In this document: one piece after another, positions 15,718 through 37,004 of the stretch
Layout: the number at the start of each line of letters is the position of its first letter
Numbering within the stretch: position 1 is the first letter of the stretch
Origin: an uncultured Lachnospiraceae bacterium
Lineage (GTDB): Bacteria > Bacillota > Clostridia > Lachnospirales > Lachnospiraceae
Length of the DNA stretch: 64,000 bases
Assembly: GCA_946405185.1 (NCBI GenBank)
Contig: CAMJGH010000002.1
Span: forward strand, 5,761 to 69,760
Direction: 5' to 3'
Notes under the pieces: model-generated
The model's database searches: none
What the model saw: the letters and a program-made list of their open reading frames with translations, nothing else
What the model was told of the DNA's origin: nothing
Position numbers and translations under genes: made by a program

Positions 15718-16302
15718 ATGAAAAAGCTGATCCTGGCATCCGCCTCGCCCAGACGCCGCGAGCTGCTCGCGCGTCTGACGGCGGATTATACCATCATGAT
15801 CTGTCACGATGAGGAGCATTCCGATGCGGAAGCTCCTTTTCTTCGTGTTCAGGAGCTGGCCGCCCACAAGGCGCGCGCCATCGCCGCCCAGCTGCCGGCG
15901 AAAGAGAAGGCCGTCATCATCGGCTCCGATACGCTGGTGGCAATGGGGCACCGGATCTACGGAAAGCCTTCTGATGCCGACGATGCCTGCCGGATGCTGC
16001 GGGAACTCTCCGGCAAGACCCATCACGTGCACACGGGCGTCTGCCTGATCGACACCGAGACGGGAGAGGAAGACCGCTTCACCGTGTCCACGGCCGTCAC
16101 CTTTGCCGACCTGTCGGAAGAGGACATCCGCCGCTACGTGGCCACCGGCGACCCGCTGGACAAAGCCGGCGCCTACGCCGCGCAGGGGCTTTTCTCCCCC
16201 TATGTGGAGAAGATCGACGGCAATTTCGATGCCGTCGTGGGCCTGCCTATGTGTGAACTGCGCAAACACCTCAAAAACCACGGCCTTCCGGGCTTGTCAT
16301 AA
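15718..16302 (+). CDS. maf: Maf-family nucleoside triphosphate pyrophosphatase
   Basis: 'LILASASPRRRELL', 'GSDT' and 'GAYAAQG' motifs. Confidence 0.9.
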   Translation: MKKLILASASPRRRELLARLTADYTIMICHDEEHSDAEAPFLRVQELAAHKARAIAAQLPAKEKAVIIGSDTLVAMGHRIYGKPSDADDACRMLRELSGKTHHVHTGVCLIDTETGEEDRFTVSTAVTFADLSEEDIRRYVATGDPLDKAGAYAAQGLFSPYVEKIDGNFDAVVGLPMCELRKHLKNHGLPGLS

Positions 16303-16313
16303 AAACCGTTCTT

Positions 16314-17306
16314 TTGTACAATATGACTATGAGATCAAAAACACTTCTCATCGCGATCCTGGTATTCTCACTCCTGGCCGCCTCCTGCGGCAGCCGGGAT
16401 TCTTCGCATGCGGACGTCGGCTTTACGCCCAACGAAGTCTGCGCGCTCGGGCCTCTGTCGCTCACACGTGACGGCGCCGTCTATCTATATGGGTCGATGG
16501 CTGCCTCCAGCGCCTCCTCCTACGGTGCTGCCGTGGGCGAAGGCGAAGCGGAGCGCGCCGCCTATGAACAGTGGCTGCTGACCACCCTGATGCCGGAAGA
16601 GTTTTCGGCGCTGGCCGCTCTGAACGTGATCGCGGCCGAAGAGGGGCTGTCGCTGTCCAACCGGGATGATTCGGCCATCCGCGCTGTCATCACCGAGGAC
16701 ATCGTCCTGACACTCGACGACGGCTCGTTTTATACCGTTCCCAAGGAGACGGTCTGGCAGCTGCTGAAAGCCTACCGCCTGGCGGATATGGCCATTTCCC
16801 GGCTGTCCGAAAACATCTCCATCTCGGTCAGCGACGACGAAGTGCGCGTCATCAGCATAAGGCAGCTTCTGCTGGCGGACTCCGGCGAAGCCATGGGCGT
16901 CTTCACCAGCCTCGAGGAGGGCGAACCGTTTGAAGCGGTAGTCGGTATGTACGCCGGCAGCACCCTGCGGCAGATGACGCTGCGCCGGGGCGGAGAGGAC
17001 AAGGTGCTCGAAGATGCCGCCTTCGCCTTAAAGACCGGCGAGTACAGCATGCCGGTCAACTGCGCGGACGGATGGTGCATCCTGTACTGCGACAGCGAGT
17101 ATGACCCCTCGCTCACCCGCGAGAACCGCAGCCAGCTCCTTCGGGAAGCCCGCGAGAACGCCTGGCTCTCCCGCGTGGAAGAGACGCTGGCCGGGCAGGT
17201 GCTCTACCGCAACGCAGACCTGGCCGACAACCTGGTGCTGGCCGAACCGGCCGCCGAAGACAGCCTCTTTGCGCTGTACCGCCGCGTCTTCCCGGACGCC
17301 GGCTGA
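16314..17306 (+). CDS. Lipoprotein with degenerate parvulin-type (PpiC/PrsA-like) PPIase domain
   Basis: Signal peptide plus lipobox 'LLAASCGS'. C-terminal pattern '[11 protein letters not shown]...[37 protein letters not shown]' resembles a parvulin fold. The start may be one of the downstream Mets (MTMRSK). Confidence 0.55.
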
Positions 17307-20643: not shown

Positions 20644-20697
20644 AGACGCTGTGCGGCTTTTGCGGCCGTCTCTTGAAACGGAAGGAGAGTGGTCCCT

Positions 20698-21372
20698 ATG
20701 GATCCCATGGAAAAACGCAGACCGGTCATCGCCATCCTCCGCAATGTGCTCGGCACGGTGGTGTGCACCGCCCTGATCATCTCGCTCTGTGTCACCCTTA
20801 CCCTGCTGTACCGTCCCCTGTATTTCCGCGATATGCAGCAGATGAAGCTGGCCGAAAGGAACGGTGTGACGGAAGAGGAGATCCTGGCCAATTACAGGAC
20901 GCTCATCACCTACAACACCCTCTTCGGGCCGGACGAGCTGGAATTTCCCACGCTCACACAGTCCGAGACCGGGCGCATCCATTTTGCCGAGGTGAAGAAG
21001 ATCTTTGTCGGCTTCCAGTGGTGCGCCATCGTCTGCCTGCTGCTGTTTTCCAGCCTTCTGGCGCGCTCCCGCGTGGCCAGGGACTTCCGGTGGCTGCGGG
21101 CCACGGCCATCGCCATCGGCGTCATACTGGCCGCCATTGCGGCCGTCTTTCTGATCGGCGGCTGGGACAACGTGTTCGTGTGGTTCCACAAGCTGGTCTT
21201 CAACAACGATTACTGGATCTTTGACTACACCACGGATCCCATCATCAACTTCCTGCCGGATACCTACTTCCTGCACTGCGCGCTGCAGATCCTCATCAAC
21301 GTTCTCATCGGTGCCGGCATCTGCGAGTGGCGCTACCGGGCCACCCGCAAGGAGTTTGCCGCGAAGAAATAA
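20698..21372 (+). CDS. TIGR01906/DUF1461-family integral membrane protein (family of lipoprotein intramolecular transacylase Lit, from memory)
   Basis: ATG 9 nt after 'AAGGAGAG'. Four TM segments and the family-like 'FHKLVFNNDYWIFDYTTDPIINFLPDTYF' block. Confidence 0.6.
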   Translation: MDPMEKRRPVIAILRNVLGTVVCTALIISLCVTLTLLYRPLYFRDMQQMKLAERNGVTEEEILANYRTLITYNTLFGPDELEFPTLTQSETGRIHFAEVKKIFVGFQWCAIVCLLLFSSLLARSRVARDFRWLRATAIAIGVILAAIAAVFLIGGWDNVFVWFHKLVFNNDYWIFDYTTDPIINFLPDTYFLHCALQILINVLIGAGICEWRYRATRKEFAAKK

Positions 21373-24312: not shown

Positions 24313-24341
24313 TTGACAATCTCCCGGATTTCCTTCATACT
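24313..24341 (+). promoter_or_regulatory. Putative sigma-A promoter of the collagen-like gene
   Basis: TTGACA (24313-24318), 17-nt spacer, CATACT (24336-24341). The ORF-track 'start' at 24313 is actually the TTG of this -35. Confidence 0.4.
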
Positions 24342-24399
24342 TTTTCAAGACAAAGATTTTCAGACATTTTTCAATCCTTTATACAGGAGTTATGAACCT

Positions 24400-26433
24400 A
24401 TGAATGACAACACCCCGCATAAGAACCGCACCCGGAAGGGCCTCCTGCTGGCTGCGCTGGCCATCGCCTGCCTGCTGCTGGCTTTCGGCATCGGCACGTT
24501 TGCCGGCGGCCGTGCCGCCAGGAAAGCCGTGCAGAACATCCCGGACACGACCATCAAAGAGGCCGGCGTGAGCGCGGACGGCGATCTGATCATCACACTG
24601 TCTACCGGGAAGACCATTAACGCCGGCCATGTGCTGGGTGCGCCCGGCCGTGACGGCGTTGATGGCAAAAACGGCCAGGACGGCGCTCCCGGCGCCAACG
24701 GTGCAGACGGAAAAGACGGGGCCGACGGCGCTCCCGGTGCTCCCGGAGCCGATGGCCGGAATGGCCTCAACGGTGCCAACGGAGCAGACGGCAAGGATGG
24801 CAGGGATGGCGCAGACGGCAGTGCAGGGCCTGCCGGACCGGCCGGAACCAACGGTACGGACGGGAAAGACGGTGTCGGTGTGTCTTCCGTGACCATCAGC
24901 GCCAGCCAGGAACTGATCATCACCTATACCGATGGTACCGCCCACAACGCCGGCTCTGTGAAGGCCGAAAAAGGCGATACGGGTGCCATAGGCGCGACAG
25001 GAGCCGCGGGAGCAGACGGGACCGGCATCTCCACGGTGGCTGTCAATGACGCCGGTGAACTGGTCCTGACGCTGACGGATGGCTCGGTCCTCAACGTAGG
25101 CCGGGTGGTCGGCCGTGACGGGCAGAATGGCGCCGACGGCAAAGACGGTGCCGATGGCCAGGACGGAAAAGACGGCAGAGATGGCGCGGATGGCCAGGAC
25201 GGAAAAGACGGTGAAAACGGCCAGGATGGCAAAGACGGCAAAGACGGACAGAACGGTGCCGACGGCATAGGCGTTTCGTCTGTCGCCATCTCGGATGATG
25301 GCAGTCTCACCATGACGCTCTCAAACGGGAACAATATAGAACTTGGAAACATCCGGGGAAAGGATGGTGCCCCCGGTGCCAATGGCGCTGACGGCAAGGA
25401 CGGTCAGGACGGCGCAGACGGAAGAGGCATTGAGTCTGCCTCCATCAACGAAGCCGGGGAGTTGGTCTTCACCTTCACGGACGGCTCGACGACGAACCTC
25501 GGCACGGTCGTGGGAAAGGACGGTAAAGACGGAGAGGACGGTGCTGACGGACAGCCCGGAAAGGACGGAAAGAACGGAAACAATGGAAGCAACGGCAAGG
25601 ATGGGGTCGGTATTGAATTGATCCAGAGGATCAATGATGAACTGATCGTAGTACTGACACCCGATTACCGCCCGGTAAACCTCGGCAATATCAAAGGTGA
25701 TAAAGGAGACACCGGAGACACCGGCCGCGGCATTACCGATGTCACTGTAAATGGTGACGGCAATCTGATCATCACCTATACCGACGGGACCACCCAGAAT
25801 GCCGGGCATATTGTCGATAAGAATACCCCCACAGACCCATATGCGATCGGCAGCGTCGTCACGATGGGCAAATACGAGCAGGATAACAACACCTCCAACG
25901 GACCCGAGCCCATTGAATGGATCGTGGTCCAGAATACAGGAAACAAAGCGTTGCTGATGTCCAAATATGTGCTGGAATATATGGCTATGTCGGATTCCCG
26001 GTACATGAGGTCCGCCGTTCGGGAGTTTCTGGAAGGTAATTTTTACTGGAACGCCTTTACCTACGATGAAACGAAAAAGATCCTGGACTCGCATATTCCC
26101 GATCTGAGTGCAGTCACACAAGGCAGAATAAACAATCATGTGTATATCTTCAGTTATGACGAAATAACAGCTCTTTCGCTGAACAACATCGATCTTACCC
26201 CGATTTTCACCCCCTATGTCCTGGCGAGAAACGGCAACAGGGAGGATGACGGCGTCTGGCTGCGGGATGAATATGACGGTTCCGGCAAATCAGGGGGCGG
26301 TAATTGCATCTATCGGACTTATCAAGGGTTCCTGCACATACAAAGTCCGACTGCGTTTACAGTTAACTATGTAATGAAACCAGAGGAGTCCTGCGGCGTC
26401 CGCCCCTCCATGTGGATTTCCATCGAACCGTAA
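24400..26433 (+). CDS. Membrane-anchored mosaic collagen-like (G-X-Y) repeat surface protein with DUF6273-like C-terminal domain
   Basis: ATG 10 nt after 'CAGGAG'. N-terminal TM '[21 protein letters not shown]'. Six G-X-Y runs (by my count about 27, 6, 18, 8, 11 and 4 triplets) alternate with seven ~27-aa modules, e.g. '[27 protein letters not shown]'. C-terminal '[42 protein letters not shown]' resembles DUF6273 (from memory). Confidence 0.8.
24637..25731 (+). repeat. In-frame collagen-triplet / beta-module repeat array (coding)
   Basis: Recurrent 'GGCAAAGACGGn / GACGGCGCn' 9-mers encode GKD/GAD/GQD triplets, interleaved with diverged ~81-nt modules. Confidence 0.85.
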
Positions 26434-26462
26434 CCGCTGAACCATACGATACGGACTCTTTC

Positions 26463-26492
26463 AAGCCGCCCGGCTTTCCAGGCGGCTTTTTT
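26463..26492 (+). terminator. Rho-independent terminator after the collagen-like gene
   Basis: 'AAGCCGCC' cggctttcca 'GGCGGCTT' followed by 'TTTT'. Confidence 0.75.
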
Positions 26493-26612
26493 CATGCGCC
26501 AAAAAAAGCCTTTCTGCCGTCCGTGGCACCACCTCCCCGAACCATCTCCGGTTTACAATACGGCAGATTCCGTCACACCAACTGTCAACTCAAAAAAAAT
26601 ATAATGGATCCA

Positions 26613-26640
26613 TATAACCATTTTCGTTCACGGGGCGTCT
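26613..26640 (+). promoter_or_regulatory. Candidate ECF-type promoter, copy A (TATAACC-N17-GTCT)
   Basis: 'TATAACCattttcgttcacggggcGTCT'. The GTCT ends about 60 nt upstream of the 26700 ATG. One of four copies with identical 17-nt spacing. Confidence 0.55.
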
Positions 26641-26699
26641 CTTATACAGAGGGGCAGTTCTGAACCCCGTCAAAACAATCCATGCAAGGGAGAAAGACA

Positions 26700-28106
26700 A
26701 TGAAGAAGATCAACTGGTTCGTGCTCTTGGTCATGACGGCGCTGCTGGCGCTTGCCGGCTGTGGAGGCGGCAAGACGATCAACCTGAATGACTACGTCAA
26801 GGTGACGTTCACCGGCAGCAACGGCTACGGAAAGCCCGAGCTGTCCCTCGATGAAGCAGGCCTTCAGAATGCCATCGACAAGGCGGCCGGCAAGTCCGAC
26901 GAAGAGAAGCTTGGTGCCGTGTGGGCGGCTTCGGGCGCCATGCAGGGAGAGTGGTCCGCTTCCGAAGGCCTCTCCAACGGGGATACGGTGACGTACCACT
27001 TCACCGCCAGCCAGGAGGAGCTTGCCAAACTCAGCAAGGTGCGTTTCCGCTTCAAGGACATCACCGTGAAGGTGACCGGCCTTCCGGAGCGCGAGGTGTA
27101 CGATCCTTTTTCGGAGATTGAGGTGACCTTCGAAGGCTTTTCCGGGAAAGGGGAGGTGAAGATCCAGACGAAGGAACAGACGGTGAAGGGCCTTACGTTC
27201 AAGGCTTCCCAGCCGGAAGGCCTTTCCAATGGCGACACCGTGACCATCACCTGTGAAGCGCCGAACGGCGATCTGGACGCCTACCTGGCCGAAAGAGGGA
27301 TGGCTGCTGAAAAGAGCAGCTGTGACGTGACCGTCTCCGGGCTTACGGAGATGACATCCTTCGATCCGTTCGAGTATATCACGGTGTCCTTTACGGGCAT
27401 CTCGCCGAACGGCTCCATCCAGGTGGAGCAGGCCGGGATGCCGGTCGGCACGCTGCAGTTCATCTGCGAAGAAAGCGGCCACATCATGACCGGCCAGACC
27501 GTCACGCTGAAGATCGACAGCACCGGATATGGCGACATCGTCGATTTCTGCGCGAAGTACGGCTACACGCCTTCACGCCTTTCCTGTGAGTACACGGCCG
27601 ACAGTCTGAACCGGTATGCGACGTCTTTGGATGACGTGTCGGAAGAGGTTCTGGTGCGCGTGGACCGGGCTGCTGAAGATTTCATGCAGGCGTATGCCAA
27701 CAAAGGCATGTCGGGCTTCCCGAACAGCGATTACTACCGCGGTATGACACGCGTGGGCAGCGCCATCATCAGCCGGAAAGATCTGAAGCCGATGCCCACC
27801 AGGCCGACCACCCGCCTGTATGTGCTTTACGAGGTGTCGATGGAGTATGAGGGTACCGCCATGTCCTACTACTATGTCTTTACCTATGACAACGTCCTGA
27901 CCGACGCGCAGGGGCAGATGCAGCTGGATGCGGAATCGTACCGGTATACCGATAACGGATACTTCAAGATGACGCAGGTTGTGTTCGGCAAGGGGCCCAT
28001 TAAGGGCAACTCCGGCTATGGATTCAAATCCGTGCAGGATTTCCTGGACGCAGAGGTGCTTTCAAAGACGGACGAGTATCAGTACGATACCGACCTTCTG
28101 CCGTAA
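26700..28106 (+). CDS. Lipoprotein with three tandem ~80-aa internal repeats plus C-terminal globular domain; function unknown
   Basis: Signal peptide plus lipobox 'LLALAGCGGG'. Repeats are marked by 'V(T/S)FxG..G.G' and 'GLSNGDTVT' ('MTGQTVT' in the third). ATG follows 'GGGAGAAAG'. Confidence 0.75.
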   Translation: MKKINWFVLLVMTALLALAGCGGGKTINLNDYVKVTFTGSNGYGKPELSLDEAGLQNAIDKAAGKSDEEKLGAVWAASGAMQGEWSASEGLSNGDTVTYHFTASQEELAKLSKVRFRFKDITVKVTGLPEREVYDPFSEIEVTFEGFSGKGEVKIQTKEQTVKGLTFKASQPEGLSNGDTVTITCEAPNGDLDAYLAERGMAAEKSSCDVTVSGLTEMTSFDPFEYITVSFTGISPNGSIQVEQAGMPVGTLQFICEESGHIMTGQTVTLKIDSTGYGDIVDFCAKYGYTPSRLSCEYTADSLNRYATSLDDVSEEVLVRVDRAAEDFMQAYANKGMSGFPNSDYYRGMTRVGSAIISRKDLKPMPTRPTTRLYVLYEVSMEYEGTAMSYYYVFTYDNVLTDAQGQMQLDAESYRYTDNGYFKMTQVVFGKGPIKGNSGYGFKSVQDFLDAEVLSKTDEYQYDTDLLP

Positions 28107-28123
28107 GAAGTTATTTATCTATA

Positions 28124-28152
28124 TTCAATATTTGCCCATCCTGTGCTATGAT
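28124..28152 (+). promoter_or_regulatory. Possible sigma-A promoter ahead of the sigma-fusion gene
   Basis: TTCAAT, 17-nt spacer ending in TGC, then TATGAT. Weak -35. Confidence 0.3.
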
Positions 28153-28208
28153 AAAGGCGGGGCGGTTACAAGCCCTCCTTTCCGACAGAGACCAAAGGAC
28201 GAACGACC

Positions 28209-29744
28209 ATGGACGAAAAGATGCTGCAGCAGGCTGTCACCCGCTTTCAGGCGGGCGATGAGCAAGGCTTCAATATGCTTTACTCCGCGTATTACAACCG
28301 CGTGAAGAGCGGCCTTTACTATATGCTCAATGACGAGCATCTGGCCGAAGACTTCACGCAGGATGCCTTCCTGAAGGTGTACCAATACATCAATCAGCTG
28401 AAAGAACCCGGCAGATTCCCTTACTGGGTAAACAGGATCGCCGCCAACTGCGCGAACGATTATCTGAAGAAAGGCATGGCGACAGAAAAGACGTTCACGT
28501 CGCTGACGCCTGAGGGGGAAGAAGAGTCTGCCTTCCCATCTGACCACTATGTCCGGAATCCGGATGACTATCAGCCGGAGCAGGCCTACAGCCGGCAGGA
28601 GACGCAGCGCCTCATCCGGGAGATCCTGGATGACCTCCCGGATGGCCAGCGCATCTCCGTAACCCTGTACTATTACAACCAGATGAAGGTGAAAGAGATC
28701 GCGGAGATCACCGGCGTCAAGGAGAACGCTGTCAAGCAGTCGCTCTACCAGGCCCGCAAGAAGATCACCGCCAAAGTGGAAGAGTTGGAAAAGAAGGGGA
28801 CGAAGCTGTATTCCCTGGCACCGTTTTCCTTTTTCCTGTGGCTTTTTCACGCCGAGGCCGAAGCCTCCGCACTGGTGGCGGTTTCGGCTGCCGGTGCTTC
28901 CGCGGTGGCAGCTGCAGCCGCTGCTGCGGGAGGCGCCGGTGCTGCGGCCACCGGCAGCGCTGCCATCGGTTCAGCCGGCGGCCTGGGCGCCTGGCTGGCG
29001 GGGCTTCCCGGACTGGCCAAGGCCGGGTTAGGCGTGCTGGTGATGGCTGCCGTCATTGGCGGCGGCATCGGCATTGGCTCTCTGGCCGGGAAAGGAGATC
29101 GACCCCCTTCCCCTGAGACTGTCACCATGATCACCTCGGAAGCCGCCACCGAGTCGTCCACAGCTGAAACCTCCGAAAGCAGCACCGAAGAGACCACACC
29201 GGCCCATGTGCACAACTGGGTGGAAGTGACGGAAACCATCCATCACGACGCGGAGTATGAGGTCATCCCCCACGAAGCAGAAATCAGTACGGAGACGGAG
29301 GTCATCCACCACGACGCGGTGATCCGCACCATCCACCACGAGGCGGAGTATACAGAAGAAACGACGTTCGTCCCAAATGGAGAGACGTACAATATGTACG
29401 CCTGCCCTGCCTGCGGCGCCACGGGGTTCATATATGAAGGCCCCGGCTCTGACATGACGAATCTGCAGAAATATGGCGAGCTCCAACACAATGACGGGTG
29501 CACGGGAAGCGGCGCGCTAGTCCCCGTCACAGGTTACGGGGGAGATTATGAAACCATCCAGGTGCTCCTCCGGGAAGCCTATGACGAAACCGTGCTGGAA
29601 GCGGAGGCCTGGGATGAGACCGTCACCCACACGGTGGTGGAAAAGGAAGCCTGGGATGAGACCGTGCTGGTATCGGACGCGTGGGATGAAACCATAGTCA
29701 CCGGCTGCATCTGCGAGGAGTGCGGCGAGACCAAACCCGACTGA
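28209..29744 (+). CDS. ECF (sigma-70 group 4) sigma factor fused to a TM segment and an extracytoplasmic His/Trp/Cys short-repeat domain
   Basis: Region 2 is 'DAFLKVYQYINQLKEPGRFPYWVNRIAANCANDYLKK'. Region 4 is 'LPDGQRISVTLYYYNQMKVKEIAEITGVKENAVKQSLYQARKKI'. This is followed by an Ala/Gly-rich hydrophobic stretch with TM 'GLGVLVMAAVIGGGIGIGSL', an S/T/E linker and then HHDAEY-type and AWDET-type repeats with two CxxCG motifs. Confidence 0.8.
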   Translation: MDEKMLQQAVTRFQAGDEQGFNMLYSAYYNRVKSGLYYMLNDEHLAEDFTQDAFLKVYQYINQLKEPGRFPYWVNRIAANCANDYLKKGMATEKTFTSLTPEGEEESAFPSDHYVRNPDDYQPEQAYSRQETQRLIREILDDLPDGQRISVTLYYYNQMKVKEIAEITGVKENAVKQSLYQARKKITAKVEELEKKGTKLYSLAPFSFFLWLFHAEAEASALVAVSAAGASAVAAAAAAAGGAGAAATGSAAIGSAGGLGAWLAGLPGLAKAGLGVLVMAAVIGGGIGIGSLAGKGDRPPSPETVTMITSEAATESSTAETSESSTEETTPAHVHNWVEVTETIHHDAEYEVIPHEAEISTETEVIHHDAVIRTIHHEAEYTEETTFVPNGETYNMYACPACGATGFIYEGPGSDMTNLQKYGELQHNDGCTGSGALVPVTGYGGDYETIQVLLREAYDETVLEAEAWDETVTHTVVEKEAWDETVLVSDAWDETIVTGCICEECGETKPD

Positions 29745-29760
29745 AACTCATCACAAACCA

Positions 29761-29788
29761 TATAACCAAAACCCTTTTCAGGCGGTCT
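29761..29788 (+). promoter_or_regulatory. Candidate ECF-type promoter, copy B (TATAACC-N17-GTCT)
   Basis: 'TATAACCaaaacccttttcaggcgGTCT', about 140 nt upstream of the XRE gene start. Confidence 0.45.
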
Positions 29789-29929
29789 TTCCTAACAGGA
29801 GGGGCCGCCTGAACGCATATCAGCACCTGATGGACTGTTTACGATACGGCAACTTTCATAAGCCCAACAGTCACCCTCTTATGAGTACAATTATATAGTT
29901 ATGCCAAAGCCATAAGGAGGTGACAGATT

Positions 29930-30235
29930 TTGGAGCACTTGGCTGAAAAACTGAAGCTGGCGCGTCAAAACGCGCATCTGACGCAGGCCCAGGTGGCTTC
30001 CATGGTCGGACTGAACAAAGCGGCTATCTCTACCTACGAGACCGGCACCAGAAGGCCTTCGTTTGAAGTCTTATGCCGGCTTGCGTCCATATACAAAGTG
30101 AGCGTCGATTACCTGTTTGGACTGTCTGAAAGCAGCTCCATCCAAACGGAAGGCCTGACCGCCGAAGAGACGGAGCTGATCCGTTCACTCATCCGGATCA
30201 TGGAAAAGAAGCACCCGGAGACAGGCGAAAAATAA
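29930..30235 (+). CDS. XRE-family helix-turn-helix transcriptional regulator
   Basis: TTG start 9 nt after 'AAGGAGG'. 'LKLARQNAHLTQAQVASMVGLNKAAISTYETGTRRPSFEVLCRLASIYKVSVDYLFG' is a canonical Cro/C1 HTH. Confidence 0.85.
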   Translation: MEHLAEKLKLARQNAHLTQAQVASMVGLNKAAISTYETGTRRPSFEVLCRLASIYKVSVDYLFGLSESSSIQTEGLTAEETELIRSLIRIMEKKHPETGEK

Positions 30236-30248
30236 TGTCCAGAAACCG

Positions 30249-30276
30249 TATAACCTTTTCCGTTCTCAGGCGGTCT
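30249..30276 (+). promoter_or_regulatory. Candidate ECF-type promoter, copy C (TATAACC-N17-GTCT)
   Basis: 'TATAACCttttccgttctcaggcgGTCT'. The GTCT ends 30 nt before the 30307 ATG. Confidence 0.45.
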
Positions 30277-30306
30277 TTATCTATGAGATCCAAAAGGAGG
30301 ACCATC

Positions 30307-31698
30307 ATGAAAAAACACATCGCCATTCTGACCGTCACCTGTATCATCCTGATCCTTTCCGGCTGCCGGAAAGCCACGCAGGCGGACACGCTGCCGGAAA
30401 CCACCGCTCAGACCGCTGCCGTGGAGACCACAGAAGAGAACACCCCGGCGTCCACCGAAGAAGAGCTTCAAACGGCAGACGAGGCTTCCCGTGAGCCTTC
30501 CACCAGACGTGATCACGCTTACAGACCGACCGGGAAAGCCCTCGCGGTGCATGCCCGGCCCGCCGGAAAGGCCGGCATGACGTCTGAGGCATCCGCCGAG
30601 GCTGACGCCTCCGAAGAAGCCCTCGGGCTTCCGGCTGCGGCGGACGCCGCGGAAAACGTCAATCCCTCTGCCGCTCAGCCGACCGCTCCCACACCGGCAG
30701 AGAACGCCTCTCAGGAAGCACGCGCTGCCGAACCCGCACCGGCGCCCACCGAGACTCCCGCTGCTCCCGCACAGACACCGGCAGCGCAGGAGAGTGCCGC
30801 CCCCGCTCCTGCAGCACCCGCTCCCGCAGAAACCGCTGCTCCCACCGCTCCGGCGCCTGCCTTTACAGAAGGCTTCAACAACGCCAAGGCGTCCGAATTT
30901 GTCCAGCAGCTCAATGCGTTCCGTCAGGCTAACGGCCTTCCTGAAGTGCGTTGGGATGATACGTGCGCACAGGTTTCCGCGGAACTGAGCGCAAAGCGCA
31001 GCACCGGCGTGGCGACGGACGTGACGGAAGAGCACCTGAAGCGGCTGAACTGCAATACGATGCATTACGTCAGCATGTACGGTCCGGCCTCCGAAACCGC
31101 TGCAAAGCATTTCACAGGATTGAAAAACTATCCCGGCGAACCCGAGAAGCTGCTGGATCCGTCCCTCACCCGCATCGGTGTCGCTTTCTACGATCATATG
31201 AGCGCCCAGGGAGAATGGTGCGACGGATATCTGATCCTGGCGCCGGATGCGTTAAGCGCACCCATCTATATACCCGAGACCGAACCGGCACCTGCCTTCG
31301 ATCCGTATTTCGATGAAGCCGCGGCCATGCAGTGCTTTGAACTCACCAACGAGCTGCGCAGAAGCCTGGGACTCCCGGAACTGGTCTGGGACAGTGCCTG
31401 CCTTCAGGTATCCAATGTCAGAGCGCAGCAGCTGCCGGCAAACTGCACCCACGACCTCTTCTGGAGCGAGTTTGTCAAGGTGATGGGAGATCAGACGCCT
31501 TGTGCGGAAAACATCATGCACAGCCGCAGCACCTGTGACGGAGCCGTTGCTTTTGAGGGCTGGAAAAACTCCCCCAGTCACTACGCCGCCATGGTCAATC
31601 CGGCATACACCCGCGTGGCCATCACCATCTACCAGGTGATGTATGAAGGCGTCCCCTCCACCTTCGGCGTGATGATCCTGGCCGGACCCACACCGTGA
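30307..31698 (+). CDS. Lipoprotein with long Ala/Pro/Glu/Thr linker and two CAP/SCP (PR-1, YkwD-like) domains
   Basis: ATG 6 nt after 'AAGGAGG'. Lipobox 'ILILSGC'. The second domain has the CAP hallmarks 'AENIMH' and 'EGWKNSPSHYAAMVNPAYTRVAI'. The first domain is degenerate ('FVQQLNAFRQANGLPEVRWDD'). Confidence 0.75.
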   Translation: MKKHIAILTVTCIILILSGCRKATQADTLPETTAQTAAVETTEENTPASTEEELQTADEASREPSTRRDHAYRPTGKALAVHARPAGKAGMTSEASAEADASEEALGLPAAADAAENVNPSAAQPTAPTPAENASQEARAAEPAPAPTETPAAPAQTPAAQESAAPAPAAPAPAETAAPTAPAPAFTEGFNNAKASEFVQQLNAFRQANGLPEVRWDDTCAQVSAELSAKRSTGVATDVTEEHLKRLNCNTMHYVSMYGPASETAAKHFTGLKNYPGEPEKLLDPSLTRIGVAFYDHMSAQGEWCDGYLILAPDALSAPIYIPETEPAPAFDPYFDEAAAMQCFELTNELRRSLGLPELVWDSACLQVSNVRAQQLPANCTHDLFWSEFVKVMGDQTPCAENIMHSRSTCDGAVAFEGWKNSPSHYAAMVNPAYTRVAITIYQVMYEGVPSTFGVMILAGPTP

Positions 31699-31736
31699 TC
31701 CGCATCCCGTCGAATACAGAGTAAAGGAGAGTCATC

Positions 31737-32240
31737 ATGTTCGTAGCCTACATTCTGGTCTTTATCAGCTTAGGTTTTATCTGGGCATTCTGGAAGATGT
31801 CCTGCAGTTTTCTGTTCAACCTGATCCTGTTGTTTCTAACCTGGCTCTGGGACCACATGAGGATCACCTGCATCGTCCTCGCCATCACCATGGTGCTCGG
31901 TGTGGTCTTCACCGTCTTTTCCATCGGCTGGCGTGATCAGTACCACGAGCTCTTCTATGAGGGCAGCGCCATCGTCCGGTTCTTGGAACTGACGTCCGAG
32001 CCTCACGTGTTGGACTGGTATTCCTCCGGCTTTGAAAGCCTCTTCGGAAAACTGTTTGGCGCAGACTCCGGCACAGACGTGTTTGTCCAGGTGATCGGCA
32101 TCTATCTGGCTGCTTACCTGATACCGGTGATCCTCATGCTCATGATCGTCCTGCTCATGCCCATGTGTTTCATCAAGGTGTTGGCCGCCGCCATCGTACT
32201 GGATCTGATCCTCAAACTCTTTCAGCGCAGAAGAAAATAA
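31737..32240 (+). CDS. Polytopic membrane protein, unknown function
   Basis: ATG after 'AAAGGAGAG'. At least 4 hydrophobic helices. Probably co-transcribed with the CAP lipoprotein gene (38-nt gap, no terminator). Confidence 0.6.
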   Translation: MFVAYILVFISLGFIWAFWKMSCSFLFNLILLFLTWLWDHMRITCIVLAITMVLGVVFTVFSIGWRDQYHELFYEGSAIVRFLELTSEPHVLDWYSSGFESLFGKLFGADSGTDVFVQVIGIYLAAYLIPVILMLMIVLLMPMCFIKVLAAAIVLDLILKLFQRRRK

Positions 32241-32252
32241 GAACCCCAGCAG

Positions 32253-32284
32253 GCGGCCGCTTTATCGCAAAGCGGCCGCTTTTC
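32253..32284 (+). terminator. Rho-independent terminator
   Basis: 'GCGGCCGCTTT' atcgc 'AAAGCGGCCGC' followed by 'TTTT'. Confidence 0.85.
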
Positions 32285-32304
32285 GACAAAAACGGATACA
32301 GACA

Positions 32305-32332
32305 TATAACCATTTTCCTTCTTGAGCCGTCT
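32305..32332 (+). promoter_or_regulatory. Candidate ECF-type promoter, copy D (TATAACC-N17-GTCT)
   Basis: 'TATAACCattttccttcttgagccGTCT'. The GTCT ends about 55 nt before the 32387 ATG. The flanks and leader are homologous to copy A. Confidence 0.55.
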
Positions 32333-32386
32333 TATATACAGAAGGGCCGCACAGGCACTTCAAAACCATCCAGGGAGGAACACAAC

Positions 32387-33514
32387 ATGAAGACCATCAT
32401 CACTTTTCTCTGCAATCTCGGCAACGATCTGGCAGACGCCGCGCAGCGTGCGGCAGAGGCGATGCCCGGCGGCTGGTGGGGCCTCATCGGACTGACCATC
32501 GTCATGCTGGCCGCCAGCACGGCACTTTCGTACCGGTACAACCGGAAGACCACGGAAGTTTCCGGGAAAGAAGCCTGGACCAAAGCAATGACAGATCCCA
32601 TCGCGTGGATCGCAAAGCCGATCCGTAAACTGCTGAAGAAAAGCAACAGCTGGCTTGTACTCATTGTCCTGACACTGCTGATCGCTTCAGCCGGCTGTTC
32701 GGACGGCAATACCGTCACTCCGAATGACGATGTTCACAAGGCCTCCTCCGAGGAGCAAACATCCGCCCCGTCGAAAACCTCTGCGGCTGCTTCCTTCAGA
32801 AAGCAGAAAAAAGCCGCCGCTGCCAGGACATCGGAAGCGAAGGAATCTGAAGGAGCGAAAACCATCCTGGCTCAGAACTACACCGAAGCAGAAGCGGAAC
32901 AGTCGGCTGCTGAAACGGAAATCGCCATGCTGAGTTCTGTTGAAAGCGCAGAAGATACAGCCGAGAACGTCGAAAGTGTCACCACGGTTGCACCGACTGC
33001 TCATGAACACACGTGGGAGGAGATCGGCCATAACGAAAACGTCATGATCCGGGATGCCTATGATGAGCCGATCGTGGCAAAAGCAGCCTGGGATGAGCAG
33101 ATACTCGTAAAGGATGCCTGGGATGAGCAGTTACTGGTCAGCGATGCCTGGGATGAGCAAGTCATGGTGGAAGAGGAATGGGATGAGCCCATATATGAGT
33201 GTCACAGTTTCTGCAATCAATGTGGGATCGATCTGACTGTCAATTGTCCGGGAGAATACGTGAATCATTTGATGGATGTTCACGATGGTGCCGCCGGCTG
33301 GTATTCCAGAAACACTGAAGTTGATTCCATCCATCACGATGCGCAGTATGAGACCGTCCATCATGACGCGGAATACCAGACCGTTCATCATGAAGCTGAG
33401 TACCAGACGGTACATCATGATGCGGAATACGGAACCGTGCATCACGACGCTCAGTATGAACAGCGCTGGATCGTGGACGGATACCGATGCTCCGGGTGCG
33501 GTGAAGTCAAATAA
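32387..33514 (+). CDS. Membrane/lipoprotein carrying a module-swapped paralogue of the sigma-fusion ectodomain (AWDE x5, CxxC, HHDAEY x5, CxxCG)
   Basis: ATG 8 nt after 'GGGAGG'. TM 'WWGLIGLTIVMLAASTAL', then a second hydrophobic segment ending 'LLIASAGCSDG' (lipobox-like). An internal Met at 32588 would give a classical lipoprotein signal peptide. The C-terminal repeat domain is aa 205-375. Confidence 0.75.
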   Translation: MKTIITFLCNLGNDLADAAQRAAEAMPGGWWGLIGLTIVMLAASTALSYRYNRKTTEVSGKEAWTKAMTDPIAWIAKPIRKLLKKSNSWLVLIVLTLLIASAGCSDGNTVTPNDDVHKASSEEQTSAPSKTSAAASFRKQKKAAAARTSEAKESEGAKTILAQNYTEAEAEQSAAETEIAMLSSVESAEDTAENVESVTTVAPTAHEHTWEEIGHNENVMIRDAYDEPIVAKAAWDEQILVKDAWDEQLLVSDAWDEQVMVEEEWDEPIYECHSFCNQCGIDLTVNCPGEYVNHLMDVHDGAAGWYSRNTEVDSIHHDAQYETVHHDAEYQTVHHEAEYQTVHHDAEYGTVHHDAQYEQRWIVDGYRCSGCGEVK

Positions 33515-33524
33515 CAGGTTGTGA

Positions 33525-33728
33525 ATGATCATGCTGACAACTGACAAATTAAAGGAACTGATATGCCTTGGCATCGGATATGGGATGGATCCTCCGGATA
33601 AGGTGGAGGAAAGCTATGCCCGGCTGATGAAACGGGTGAGAGCGGCAGAAGCCTCATCCGGTAAGCGGGAGTTTGTTTCATCAGACATCGAAAAAGCAGA
33701 AGGACATCTGGCAATGCCGACGGGCTGA
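33525..33728 (+). CDS. Small hypothetical protein (67 aa), doubtful
   Basis: ORF 10 nt after the preceding stop. No convincing RBS, no recognisable domain, lower GC than the surroundings. Confidence 0.25.
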   Translation: MIMLTTDKLKELICLGIGYGMDPPDKVEESYARLMKRVRAAEASSGKREFVSSDIEKAEGHLAMPTG

Positions 33729-33797
33729 GTCTGGTTGATGGAAATTCTGTTTTCGCATAACTGCAATACTACGAAAAAGAGCATTTATCCCGAAAAT

Positions 33798-33840
33798 ACC
33801 CCGGAATTGCCTGTATCAGGCCTTTCCGGGGTTCTTTTTC
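33798..33840. terminator. Bidirectional terminator-like hairpin at the lgt 3' end
   Basis: 'ACCCCGGA...TCCGGGGT' stem with 'TCTTTTT' on the plus strand and 'TATTTTC' on the minus strand. Confidence 0.5.
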
Positions 33841-34768
33841 AGGCTTCCGGCTTTTCAGCGGATTCCTCGGTATGGTCGGCTTCCTCGGACGTTTCTTCGC
33901 TGGCAGCCGTCTTGTCTGCAGGTTCTGCTTCAGCTTCATCAGCTGTCTTGTCTGCAGCATCCGTGTCTTTCGTTTCCGCAGCGGCTTTTTCGGCTTCGTA
34001 TTCCGCATCGGCTTCGGCAATGGCGCCGCGTACTGTGCACATCCGGTACAGCACCACGCCCGCAATCAGCGTGAAAATGGCGATGAACTGCGATGTGGAA
34101 AACAGCCAGACGCTCCCGCGCGGATCTCCGCGGAAATACTCCATGGCAAACCGTCCGATGCTGTACAGGATCAGATACAGGCTGCCCACCTGGCCATCGT
34201 AGCGCTTTTTGCGGGCAAAGCCCAGGAGCACGCCGAAATGCAGGAAATTCAGTGCCGAACTCATGAGCTGCGTCGGGATCAGCTTCACATTGTTGGGGGC
34301 AAACTGGGAATTCTTGAACACGATGTGGCAGGCGGACGCGGTCTCTTTGCCGTAGCAGCACCCGGCCAGGAAGCAGCCGATGCGGCCGAACGCCTGTGCG
34401 AGCGCAATGGACGGCATGACCAGATCAAACATCTTAAAGAAATTCAGATGTTTGCGCCGGGTATACAGCCAGCCTGTGAAAATTCCCAGGACGATACCGC
34501 CATAGACCACAAAGCCGTCCGCCACGTTCAGGAACAGCTTCGGGTTGGCCAGATACGTCGGCAGTTCCACGATCCAGTACATGACCTTGGCGCCGACCAG
34601 ACCGCCGATACCGGCCCAAATGCCCAGGTAAAAGACGGTATCTTCATCGGTACCGTACTTTTTGGCGCGCTTCATGGCCACCAGAAACGCTGCCACAATG
34701 CCGACAGCCATCATCAGGCCGTATCCGTAGATGGTGATCGGCCCGATATGCAGCAATTCATTATGCAT
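33839..34768 (-). CDS. lgt: Prolipoprotein diacylglyceryl transferase with ~60-aa acidic low-complexity C-terminal tail
   Basis: 'IGPITIYGYGLMMAVGIVAAF' and 'GRIGCFLAGCCYG' Lgt-like blocks. Tail 'AEADAEYEAEKAAAETKDTDAADKTADEAEAEPADK...'. Confidence 0.88.
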   Translation of the reverse strand: MHNELLHIGPITIYGYGLMMAVGIVAAFLVAMKRAKKYGTDEDTVFYLGIWAGIGGLVGAKVMYWIVELPTYLANPKLFLNVADGFVVYGGIVLGIFTGWLYTRRKHLNFFKMFDLVMPSIALAQAFGRIGCFLAGCCYGKETASACHIVFKNSQFAPNNVKLIPTQLMSSALNFLHFGVLLGFARKKRYDGQVGSLYLILYSIGRFAMEYFRGDPRGSVWLFSTSQFIAIFTLIAGVVLYRMCTVRGAIAEADAEYEAEKAAAETKDTDAADKTADEAEAEPADKTAASEETSEEADHTEESAEKPEA

Positions 34769-35541: not shown

Positions 35542-36474
35542 TCATTTCCGGGCGCGAAGCGCCGTCAGAAGTTCTTCCATTTCATCCGGAAGCGGCGAGG
35601 AAAACACGACCTCTTCGCCGGTTGTGGGGTGAACAAACCCCAGCAGATACGCGTGAAGGCACTGCCCGTGCAGGTTTTTCAGGCTCAAGCCGGCCAGTTT
35701 CCCTTCCGCCGGGCCGTAGACCGTATCGCCCACCAGCGGATGGCCGATCTTCGTCATATGCACGCGGATCTGGTGCGTTCTTCCCGTTTCCAGGCGGCAT
35801 TCGATGTAGGTGCAGTCCCCAAAGCGCTCCAGCACTTTCCAGTGCGTCACGGCTTCCCGTCCGCCCGGCACGACCGCCATCTTCTTGCGGTCCGCAGGGC
35901 TGCGGCCGATGGGCGCGTTGACCGTCCCTTCGTCCTCGCGCAGATTCCCGTAGACGATGGCCCGGTAGCGGCGCTGCAGCGAATGAACCGCCAGCTGCGC
36001 GGCGATGGCTGTATGCGCGGCATCGTTCTTGCAGACCACCAGCAGGCCCGTGGTGTCGCGGTCGATCCGGTGCACGATGCCCGGACGCTCCACGCCGTTG
36101 ATGCCGGACAGATCCGTACAGTGATACAGCAAGGCGTTGACCAGCGTCCCGGTCATGTGGCCGGGTGCGGGATGCACCACCATGCCTTTGGGCTTGTTGA
36201 CCACGATGACATCGGCATCTTCGTAGACGATATCCAGCGGGATGTCCTCGGCGGCGATGGCCACCGGCGTCACTTCGGGCACGCGGATGCGGATGCCGTC
36301 GCCGGCCGCCGGCTCATAGCTGGGCTTGACCGGACGGTCGTTCACCGTCACGTCTCCGGCCGCGATGCGCTTCTGCCAGAACGTCCGTGAGCGCTCGGAA
36401 AAGCGCGCCGCCAGATACCGGTCGAGGCGCGCTTCTTCTTCTCCTTCTTCCACACGGTAGAAAATGTCCGTCAC
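35542..36474 (-). CDS. rluD: RluA-family 23S rRNA pseudouridine synthase (RluD-like)
   Basis: S4 domain 'RLDRYLA' and catalytic 'HRIDRDTTGLLVVCKN'. Conserved lspA-rluD pairing. Confidence 0.9.
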   Translation of the reverse strand: MTDIFYRVEEGEEEARLDRYLAARFSERSRTFWQKRIAAGDVTVNDRPVKPSYEPAAGDGIRIRVPEVTPVAIAAEDIPLDIVYEDADVIVVNKPKGMVVHPAPGHMTGTLVNALLYHCTDLSGINGVERPGIVHRIDRDTTGLLVVCKNDAAHTAIAAQLAVHSLQRRYRAIVYGNLREDEGTVNAPIGRSPADRKKMAVVPGGREAVTHWKVLERFGDCTYIECRLETGRTHQIRVHMTKIGHPLVGDTVYGPAEGKLAGLSLKNLHGQCLHAYLLGFVHPTTGEEVVFSSPLPDEMEELLTALRARK

Positions 36475-37004
36475 TTCTTTTCGTCCCCGTCTGCTTTCGT
36501 ACCCGGCTTCAGGAAGGCCAGATCATCGTCCTTCCTGTAGACAAAAACCATCAGGATGATCAGCAGGATCACGGAGCAGACCACACAGATGTCCGCCACG
36601 TTGAACACCGGGAAGTTGATCAGCGAGAAATACAGGAAATCCACCACATAGCCGTTCATCATGCGGTCCAGGAGGTTTCCCACCGCACCGGCCATCAGGC
36701 CGAACAGGCAGAGGGTGAACAGCGTGTACCGCTTCTCCTCCGGCACCTTGCGGAGAACGCCCACGATCGCGGCCAGCATGATCAGCGTGACCGCCAGGAA
36801 AAAGAAGTTGGCGTTCTGCAGGATGCCGAAAGCCGCGCCCCGGTTCTCCACGTATGACAGTTCAAAGACGCCCGGGATCAGGGGGATGGATGCCGCCTTC
36901 AGCGTGGTGGCCGCCCAGTACTTGGTCAGCTGGTCGATCAGGACCAGCACGGCCATCATCACAAAGCCGGCGGTCTTCATGCGCGGTGTTTTCGTTTGAT
37001 CCAT
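36471..37004 (-). CDS. lspA: Lipoprotein signal peptidase II
   Basis: 'NRGAAFGIL' and 'FPVFNVADI' catalytic Asp blocks. Four TMs. Confidence 0.92.
   Translation of the reverse strand: MDQTKTPRMKTAGFVMMAVLVLIDQLTKYWAATTLKAASIPLIPGVFELSYVENRGAAFGILQNANFFFLAVTLIMLAAIVGVLRKVPEEKRYTLFTLCLFGLMAGAVGNLLDRMMNGYVVDFLYFSLINFPVFNVADICVVCSVILLIILMVFVYRKDDDLAFLKPGTKADGDEKK

Follow-up and report, generated by a model that had tools for sequence, protein, structure and literature searches.

Sigma factors of the extracytoplasmic function (ECF) type are the commonest means by which bacteria link gene expression to what happens outside the cell. Their promoters usually have AAC in the -35 element and CGT or GTC in the -10 element, with a T-rich spacer of about 17 nt between them (e.g., those of SigW, SigX, and SigM in Bacillus subtilis). 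To our knowledge, the ECF sigma factors of the dominant gut Clostridia are almost unstudied. The locus described here comes from an uncultured Lachnospiraceae bacterium. It lies in a 64-kb stretch of contig CAMJGH010000002.1 (positions 5,761 to 69,760 of the forward strand; this whole stretch is hereafter called the window) and encodes an ECF sigma factor which is fused to a membrane helix and an outer domain. All genes of the locus are on the + strand, and copies of the motif TATAACC-N17-GTCT head its four transcription units. It is probable that these four sites are promoters read by RNA polymerase with the ECF sigma domain of the fused protein (gene at 28209-29744), which would control a local regulon of four units.

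ECF sigma factors commonly regulate their own synthesis, which is accepted as a ground for promoter prediction (PMC7826278). In Pseudomonas putida, IutY (ECF243) is a sigma/anti-sigma hybrid, which is released by regulated intramembrane proteolysis (PMC8999054). The actinobacterial groups ECF48, ECF52, and ECF53 (e.g., SCO4117) have a zinc-finger, membrane helices, and a long outer extension, and proteolytic release is proposed for them (PMC8999054). Judged from its sequence, the best reading of the window locus is a textbook-style local ECF regulon within an unstudied Clostridia family of membrane-tethered sigma factors.

Four copies of a two-part motif

When both strands of the window are scanned for exact matches, TATAACC-N17-GTCT turns up exactly four times, always on the + strand. 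Copies A (26613-26640) and D (32305-32332) read TATAACC-N17-CGTCT, and copies B (29761-29788) and C (30249-30276) read TATAACC-N17-GGTCT. An earlier reading of the letters without database searches (the sequence-only reading) had listed the same four positions on the same strand, had not noticed the motif elsewhere in the window, and had judged its recurrence very unlikely by chance. The scan agrees on each of these points. From the base composition of the window (61% G+C), 0.012 copies are expected and the Poisson probability of four or more is about 9e-10. No copy is found in 100 dinucleotide-preserving shuffles of the window. When up to two mismatches are allowed, only three further sites appear. 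This is the chance level (4.4 +/- 2.0), and the window therefore has no degenerate additional copies.

The four copies are intergenic. The best-supported start codon follows the last T of GTCT at a distance of 59 nt for copy A (ATG at 26700), 141 nt for copy B (TTG at 29930), 30 nt for copy C (ATG at 30307), and 54 nt for copy D (ATG at 32387), in line with the 30-140 nt given before. Copy B begins 16 nt past the stop codon of the sigma gene. Start codons were picked by ribosome-binding site and lipoprotein signal peptide. The mechanical list of open reading frames (ORFs) has longer ORFs that would overrun copies C and D; the shorter genes are favored by the lipoprotein signal MKKHIAILTVTCIILILSGC at 30307 and by a GGGAGGA ribosome-binding site ahead of 32387.

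In an ungapped comparison, the core common to the four sites is cCATATAACC, a T-rich spacer, and (C/G)GTCTt. It has the features of an ECF-type promoter: two parts, AAC in the -35, CGT or GTC in the -10, a fixed spacer, one orientation, and a position upstream of genes. TATAACC would hold the -35 (AAC) and (C/G)GTCT the -10, and the fixed 17-nt T-rich spacer would set the geometry. Transcription would start about 6-9 nt after GTCT, inside a partly conserved TATACAG.

The copies could also be leftovers of local duplication (A from D or B from C), or parts of hairpins or terminators, with no shared regulatory role. Similarity does reach past the 11 fixed bases, with 82% identity between copies A and D (45 nt) and 79% identity between copies B and C (39 nt). 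A very stable hairpin with a 17-bp stem (29777-29813, + strand; inverted repeat I19) has the -10 of copy B in its 5' arm, and small stems at copies A and C were picked up by a terminator scan. However, the identity is concentrated in the two promoter blocks. Beyond about 45 nt the flanks of the four copies are unrelated, as are the downstream genes. The folds around copies A and C are no better than those of shuffled sequences (z = -0.28 and -0.58), and Rfam has no family match in 26300-33900. Across 59 sites in other genomes, the two blocks are conserved and hairpins are not. We hold such an origin of the four sites to be very improbable.

The hairpin at copy B starts 33 nt past the sigma stop codon and has no U-tract after it (80-nt fold 29768-29847: -33 kcal/mol, z = -5.4). 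Only transcripts that continue past the end of the sigma gene would fold into it, and we conjecture that it may limit read-through into the next unit. No hairpin like it was noticed when the sites in other loci were read, which was not a systematic search.

A weight matrix made from the 59 sites gave only two candidates for more regulon members in the window, at 16272 and 16301. Both were rejected, since they were read as a housekeeping promoter. This promoter, TTGTCA-N17-TACAAT, is within 16290-16326, ahead of another lipoprotein gene (start near 16329).

The motif beside related sigma genes

The fused sigma is a member of a protein family with 352 matches among the candidates scored. Its members are 450-850 aa long and consist of an N-terminal ECF sigma, the conserved segment EKKGTKLYSLAPxPFLLWL, a hydrophobic helix, and a highly variable C-terminal part. 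For comparison we used 80 loci which encode relatives of the window sigma (31-43% identity) in Lachnospiraceae, Oscillospiraceae, and related genomes; the species of the window is not among them. In these loci, [AT]A[AT]AACC-N17-GTC has 60 matches on the strand of the sigma gene and 5 on the opposite one. With spacers of 14-16 or 18-20 nt there are 1-7 matches for each length on either strand; enrichment is seen for one combination only, the 17-nt spacer on the sigma strand. Taken together, 59 distinct sites have the family consensus of an A/T-rich stretch, TAAAACCT, a spacer whose last bases are TTT, and (C/T)GTCT.

The motif is found at most 700 nt upstream of the sigma gene or at most 400 nt after its stop codon in 36 of the 80 loci, and 28 of the 80 have an upstream copy within this distance. 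At least 12 loci have the motif 15-31 nt after the sigma stop codon, which is the position of copy B in the window. In several loci which have no near copy (e.g., L022, L046, and L078), the motif lies farther upstream, ahead of genes preceding the sigma gene, as in the window. Other genes behind the family motif encode surface proteins with LRR/BspA, SLH, dockerin, Listeria-Bacteroides repeat, or transglutaminase-like domains. In three related loci the family promoter precedes genes for proteins with a nuclease-related domain (NERD; alignment A3), which is odd beside the surface-protein targets.

The sequence-only reading had proposed the four copies as a candidate regulon of the fused ECF sigma. 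The strand- and spacer-specific motif beside the sigma relatives supports this proposal. We infer the link between motif and sigma from their co-location and from comparison. The nearest relatives of the sigma domain with solved structures are sigma-E, AlgU, and SigW, and this likeness, the ECF form of the motif, and the comparative data together lead us to read the four sites as the likely promoters of the fused sigma.

The lipoprotein encoded behind copy A (26700-28106) allows the motif to be followed from the side of a target. Homologues of this protein are encoded on the sigma strand in 11 of the 80 loci (10 found by tblastn, and that of L025 by blastp). Those of L014, L025, L028, and L060 have the motif directly in front, and in L046 and L077 the lipoprotein gene is upstream of the sigma gene, as in the window. 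Lipoprotein homologues which do not adjoin a sigma gene (L084-L087) have no such motif. Some of these have housekeeping-like promoters instead, and one is within a WXG100/type VII secretion cluster. Thus, the motif tracks the sigma and not the target family.

ECF sigma factors of one organism can overlap in promoter specificity, as SigW, SigX, and SigM do in B. subtilis. The four sites could, therefore, be ECF-type promoters read by another ECF sigma encoded elsewhere in the genome, with the fused sigma as its target, and the housekeeping-like promoter of the sigma gene (see below) would suit such an arrangement. Yet the motif travels with the sigma relatives in dozens of unrelated genomes, specific in strand and spacer, and it is absent at the lipoprotein homologues without a neighboring sigma. 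The fused sigma is also the only sigma-like ORF of the 64 kb. We consider it unlikely that another ECF sigma is the one which reads the four sites.

Another role for the motif would be that of an operator, bound by the XRE-family regulator encoded at 29930-30235 or by some other DNA-binding protein. The XRE gene is inside the cluster and has a motif copy in front of it. The motif, however, is asymmetric and keeps one fixed orientation to the downstream gene. Its two blocks at a fixed distance of 17 nt have the form of a promoter, unlike the palindrome expected for a dimeric helix-turn-helix protein, and neither palindromic nor direct-repeat half-sites are present. Nor does the motif co-occur with the regulator gene: XRE homologues are found in only 2 of the 80 loci, and the motif in about half. 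The rarity of XRE homologues in motif-bearing loci argues that the motif is not an XRE operator, and we give an operator role hardly any chance.

Several points weigh against the assignment of the four sites to the fused sigma. No motif is near the sigma gene in 44 of the 80 loci, so the link is not universal. The TATAACC of the window differs from the TAAAACC of the family, and the TATAACC variant is seen as a promoter in no other locus. Copies B and C have GGTCT, not CGTCT. The 102-nt gap directly before the sigma gene (28107-28208) has no motif copy, and autoregulation therefore depends on the predicted read-through from copy A. The scan covered 64 kb; the regulon may be larger, or an ECF sigma of the same specificity may exist elsewhere. 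For footprinting of the four sites themselves, the genome collection gave no relative above 43% identity. One uninformative relative of 36% identity (P0002) comes from a contig of 2.6 kb, whose start lies within the upstream gene, and a metagenome scan for a close relative gave only an identical 1.3-kb fragment. The sequence-only reading had suggested footprinting in related genomes; the comparison gave the family motif beside sigma relatives and no close orthologue.

In at least 16 of the 80 related loci, the gene immediately upstream of the fused sigma is a small conserved ORF (46-73 aa) driven by the family promoter (e.g., L029 9747-9890, L036 9735-9878, L001 9753-9893, L046 8480-8683, and L054 8655-8798). 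The encoded protein is acidic and helical and has the pattern F..LF..hv....L..E.A..LLQ+IL.IL. It could be an unrecognized partner or inhibitor of these sigma factors. When the ORFs of the window in all six frames were searched with a profile of this protein, no homologue was found (best E-value 2.2).

The fused sigma and the four units

The sigma protein has 511 aa. It matches Sigma70_r2 (48.5 bits; cut-off 24) and Sigma70_r4_2 (54.4 bits; cut-off 25.7) of Pfam, and TIGR02937 (sigma70-ECF; 94.4 bits; cut-off 42.9). Pfam gives no match to region 1 or region 3, and about 40 disordered residues separate r2 and r4. With sigma2 and sigma4 present and sigma1 and sigma3 absent, the protein belongs to the ECF (group 4) sigma-70 factors. 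The two sigma domains (residues 1-195) are followed by the conserved segment EKKGTKLYSLAPFSFFLWLF, an Ala/Gly-rich linker, a hydrophobic helix at about 268-294, and the outer domain. Residues 196-267 consist of the 20-residue conserved segment and the linker, and no anti-sigma domain is matched by Pfam or NCBIfam between sigma4 and the membrane helix. Thus, of the features of a hybrid sigma, the protein has the membrane helix and the outer-domain extension but no recognizable anti-sigma domain (FecR-like or ZAS/zinc-finger). In the AlphaFold2 model, the predicted local distance difference test (pLDDT) score is at least 90 for most of residues 1-90 and 135-195. Only the sigma domains are confident in this model; it is uninformative on the conserved segment after sigma4 and has no confident docking onto the sigma domains.

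The hydrophobic segment 268-294 (Kyte-Doolittle 2.09) is kept hydrophobic in the family alignment. A second, weaker, Ala-rich hydrophobic segment is found at 219-241. It is not kept as a hydrophobic helix in the family, and because of it the topology of the protein is not certain. Homology to another protein of the locus, the 375-aa product of 32387-33514 (+ strand), suggests where the C-terminal part is. The two proteins are similar over their repeats (BLASTP 2e-12 and 5e-12), they have HHDAEY repeats, AWDE repeats, and CxxC pairs in common (CxxCG in the shared form), and their genes share the DNA repeat families D1 and D2. In the 375-aa protein, the domain of this type follows a lipobox or second helix, with a strongly basic loop before it, which would place the domain outside the cell. 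By homology, the C-terminal part of the sigma would also be outside, and the sigma would pass the membrane once. The make-up of the shared repeats (29220-29740 and 33040-33510), with their His-rich HHDAEY, AWDE, and CxxC pairs, hints at metal binding.

Unit 1 comprises the lipoprotein and sigma genes. It is isolated from upstream transcription by the intrinsic terminator of the preceding collagen-repeat gene (26463-26494, + strand); in the fold of 26434-26520 this terminator is a hairpin, AAGCCGCC..GGCGGCUU, with U6 after it. The lipoprotein (26700-28106, + strand) has 468 aa, the lipobox LAGC, three repeats of a beta-rich domain with a GLSNGDTVT motif, and a C-terminal helix-and-sheet domain. 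Pfam and NCBIfam have no family match to it. Although its AlphaFold2 model has a mean pLDDT of 87, a fold search with the model gave no solved structure at E <= 0.001, and the C-terminal domain has weak NTF2-like hints only (RsgI9 S1C-NTF2, VirB8-like). The lipoprotein family has 872 matches (P0121-P0240; L084 5001-6437 is among them) and no Pfam model. In place of the lipoprotein signal, many of its members have an N-terminal zinc-ribbon and a membrane helix. No match to the lipoprotein domain as an outer domain is found among 120 homologues of the fused sigma.

The sequence-only reading had suggested that copy A could drive both the lipoprotein gene and the sigma gene. The fold of the gap between them shows no terminator (z = 0.15), consistent with this suggestion. 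The gap plausibly also holds a housekeeping promoter of sigma-A type (28124-28152, + strand), which was read by eye as TTCAAT-N17-TGCTATGAT with TGC directly before the -10. As TTCAAT-N17-TATGAT, it scores under the threshold of the consensus scan.

Unit 2 is the gene of the XRE-family helix-turn-helix regulator (29930-30235, + strand; 101 aa, TTG start; Pfam HTH_3 1e-14). In NCBIfam the protein is RstR-like at 5e-17, under the family cut-off. Unit 3 begins with a 463-aa lipoprotein (30307-31698, + strand; lipobox LSGC) which has two CAP/SCP (YkwD-like) domains (Pfam CAP 6e-23, two stretches). It shares the unit with a small multi-pass membrane protein of 167 aa (31737-32240, + strand), which is recognized by its hydropathy and has no family match in Pfam or NCBIfam. 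An intrinsic terminator closes the unit (32251-32285, + strand; 13-bp stem followed by UUUU, z = -3.9).

Unit 4 consists of the gene of the 375-aa protein and a small ORF of 67 aa (33525-33728, + strand) from the ORF list, for which similarity searches gave no relative. The 375-aa protein is a membrane-anchored, stand-alone copy of the outer domain of the sigma. The sequence-only reading had named the same four downstream units, the small ORF apart, but its "paralogue" in unit 4 is a copy of this outer domain and has no resemblance to the lipoprotein. Induction of such a copy by the sigma was considered as a trait of the family and rejected, since only 2 of the 80 related loci have one. A two-way terminator separates unit 4 from the convergent lgt gene (33793-33842; inverted repeat I6, fold z = -3.2).

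Genes around the locus are ordinary chromosomal ones, and an origin from a prophage or mobile element was rejected. FtsK, PriA, fmt, rsmB, rlmN, a PP2C phosphatase, a PASTA kinase, rsgA, and rpe are found upstream; lgt, rluD, and lspA are found downstream. The 706-aa protein encoded directly upstream (24313-26433) has collagen triple-helix repeats and a C-terminal DUF6273, and its gene has its own terminator. The locus, with its lipoprotein targets, is also flanked by lipoprotein-maturation genes: Lit (20689-21372, found by Pfam), lgt (33839-34768, - strand), and lspA (36471-37004, - strand), the last two recognized from their translations only. This is probably a coincidence, because lgt and lspA are in a conserved housekeeping stretch.

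Proposed control and comparison with described systems

The locus is most likely an ordinary self-controlled sigma-factor gene set from an unstudied family. The sigma would be tethered to the membrane by one helix, with its variable domain outside the cell. By analogy with IutY and with ECF48, ECF52, and ECF53, in which proteolysis frees a sigma kept back by its fused membrane part (PMC8999054), control is most likely by proteolytic release: a signal from outside would lead to cleavage in or near the membrane and would free the sigma2-sigma4 part. Copy A would then drive the lipoprotein gene and, by read-through, the sigma gene, giving positive autoregulation. The sensor needs some basal sigma, which would come from the weak putative housekeeping promoter at 28124-28152; with such a promoter in the gap, autoregulation is probably layered over basal expression. 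Copy B would drive the XRE regulator, copy C the double-CAP lipoprotein and the membrane protein, and copy D the free membrane-anchored copy of the sigma's own outer domain with the small ORF.

As far as we found, the membrane-tethered ECF sigma clade of Clostridia is uncharacterized. The main text of the ECF classification paper describes no Clostridia group which matches these sigma factors. A literature search found nothing specific on membrane-tethered sigma factors in Clostridia or Lachnospiraceae and no paper on the clade. More tentatively, all the observations may be joined into one reading. The clade would be large (more than 350 proteins) and consist of ECF sigma factors of gut and rumen Clostridia which are tethered to the membrane by a single pass. 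They would have the conserved post-sigma4 segment and highly variable outer domains and could act as one-protein transmembrane signaling devices, without an anti-sigma domain. Each sigma would drive a small set of adjacent surface-protein genes through a clade-wide promoter, TAAAACC-N17-CGTCT, possibly with the 46-73 aa protein as a partner or inhibitor and, in the window, with the sensor copy as a decoy that damps the signal. As a whole, this joint reading is a possibility that we do not favor over its failing in one part or another.

The promoter prediction itself is routine and no surprise to a specialist. The locus is of use as a compact test system: residues 1-200 supply the sigma domain, the four promoters share an exact motif, and the lipoprotein and membrane targets are defined. 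TAAAACC-N17-CGTCT would allow regulons to be predicted from sequence for hundreds of related sigma factors. If it is true that the fused architecture works without an anti-sigma domain, a Firmicutes example would be added to the few membrane-tethered sigma factors.

The window sigma is like IutY in that one polypeptide combines an ECF sigma, at its N terminus, with a segment that spans the membrane and a sensing domain outside. IutY, however, has a FecR-like anti-sigma part, a TonB-dependent receptor as partner, and a Gram-negative envelope around it. The window has neither such a part nor such a partner, and in its sigma the stretch from sigma4 to the membrane helix has no anti-sigma match in Pfam. 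With ECF48, ECF52, and ECF53 the window sigma shares a long C-terminal extension, a membrane helix, a variable outer domain, and the lack of a separate anti-sigma factor. These groups belong to a different phylum, and they have a zinc-finger (ZAS-like) element before the membrane helix where the window sigma has its conserved segment and Ala/Gly-rich linker. Because it has no anti-sigma domain, the window sigma should not be filed in the IutY (ECF243) or ECF48/52/53 groups.

The B. subtilis ECF regulons are close in other respects. Like SigW, SigX, SigM, and SigV, the window sigma has sigma2 and sigma4 only, and SigW is among its best sequence matches with a solved structure. The promoters also have the same two-part form, with AAC in the -35, CGT or GTC in the -10, and a T-rich spacer of 16-17 nt. 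As in B. subtilis, the operon of the sigma itself would have such a promoter in front (copy A, with read-through), and envelope proteins would be the targets. The -35 is TATAACC in the window and TAAAACC in the relatives, compared with TGAAAC or TGTAAC for the B. subtilis ECF sigma factors. Unlike these, the window sigma is not followed by a separate anti-sigma gene but itself carries the membrane helix and the outer domain. While the genes controlled by the B. subtilis ECF sigma factors are dispersed, the regulon seen in the window consists of four adjacent units.

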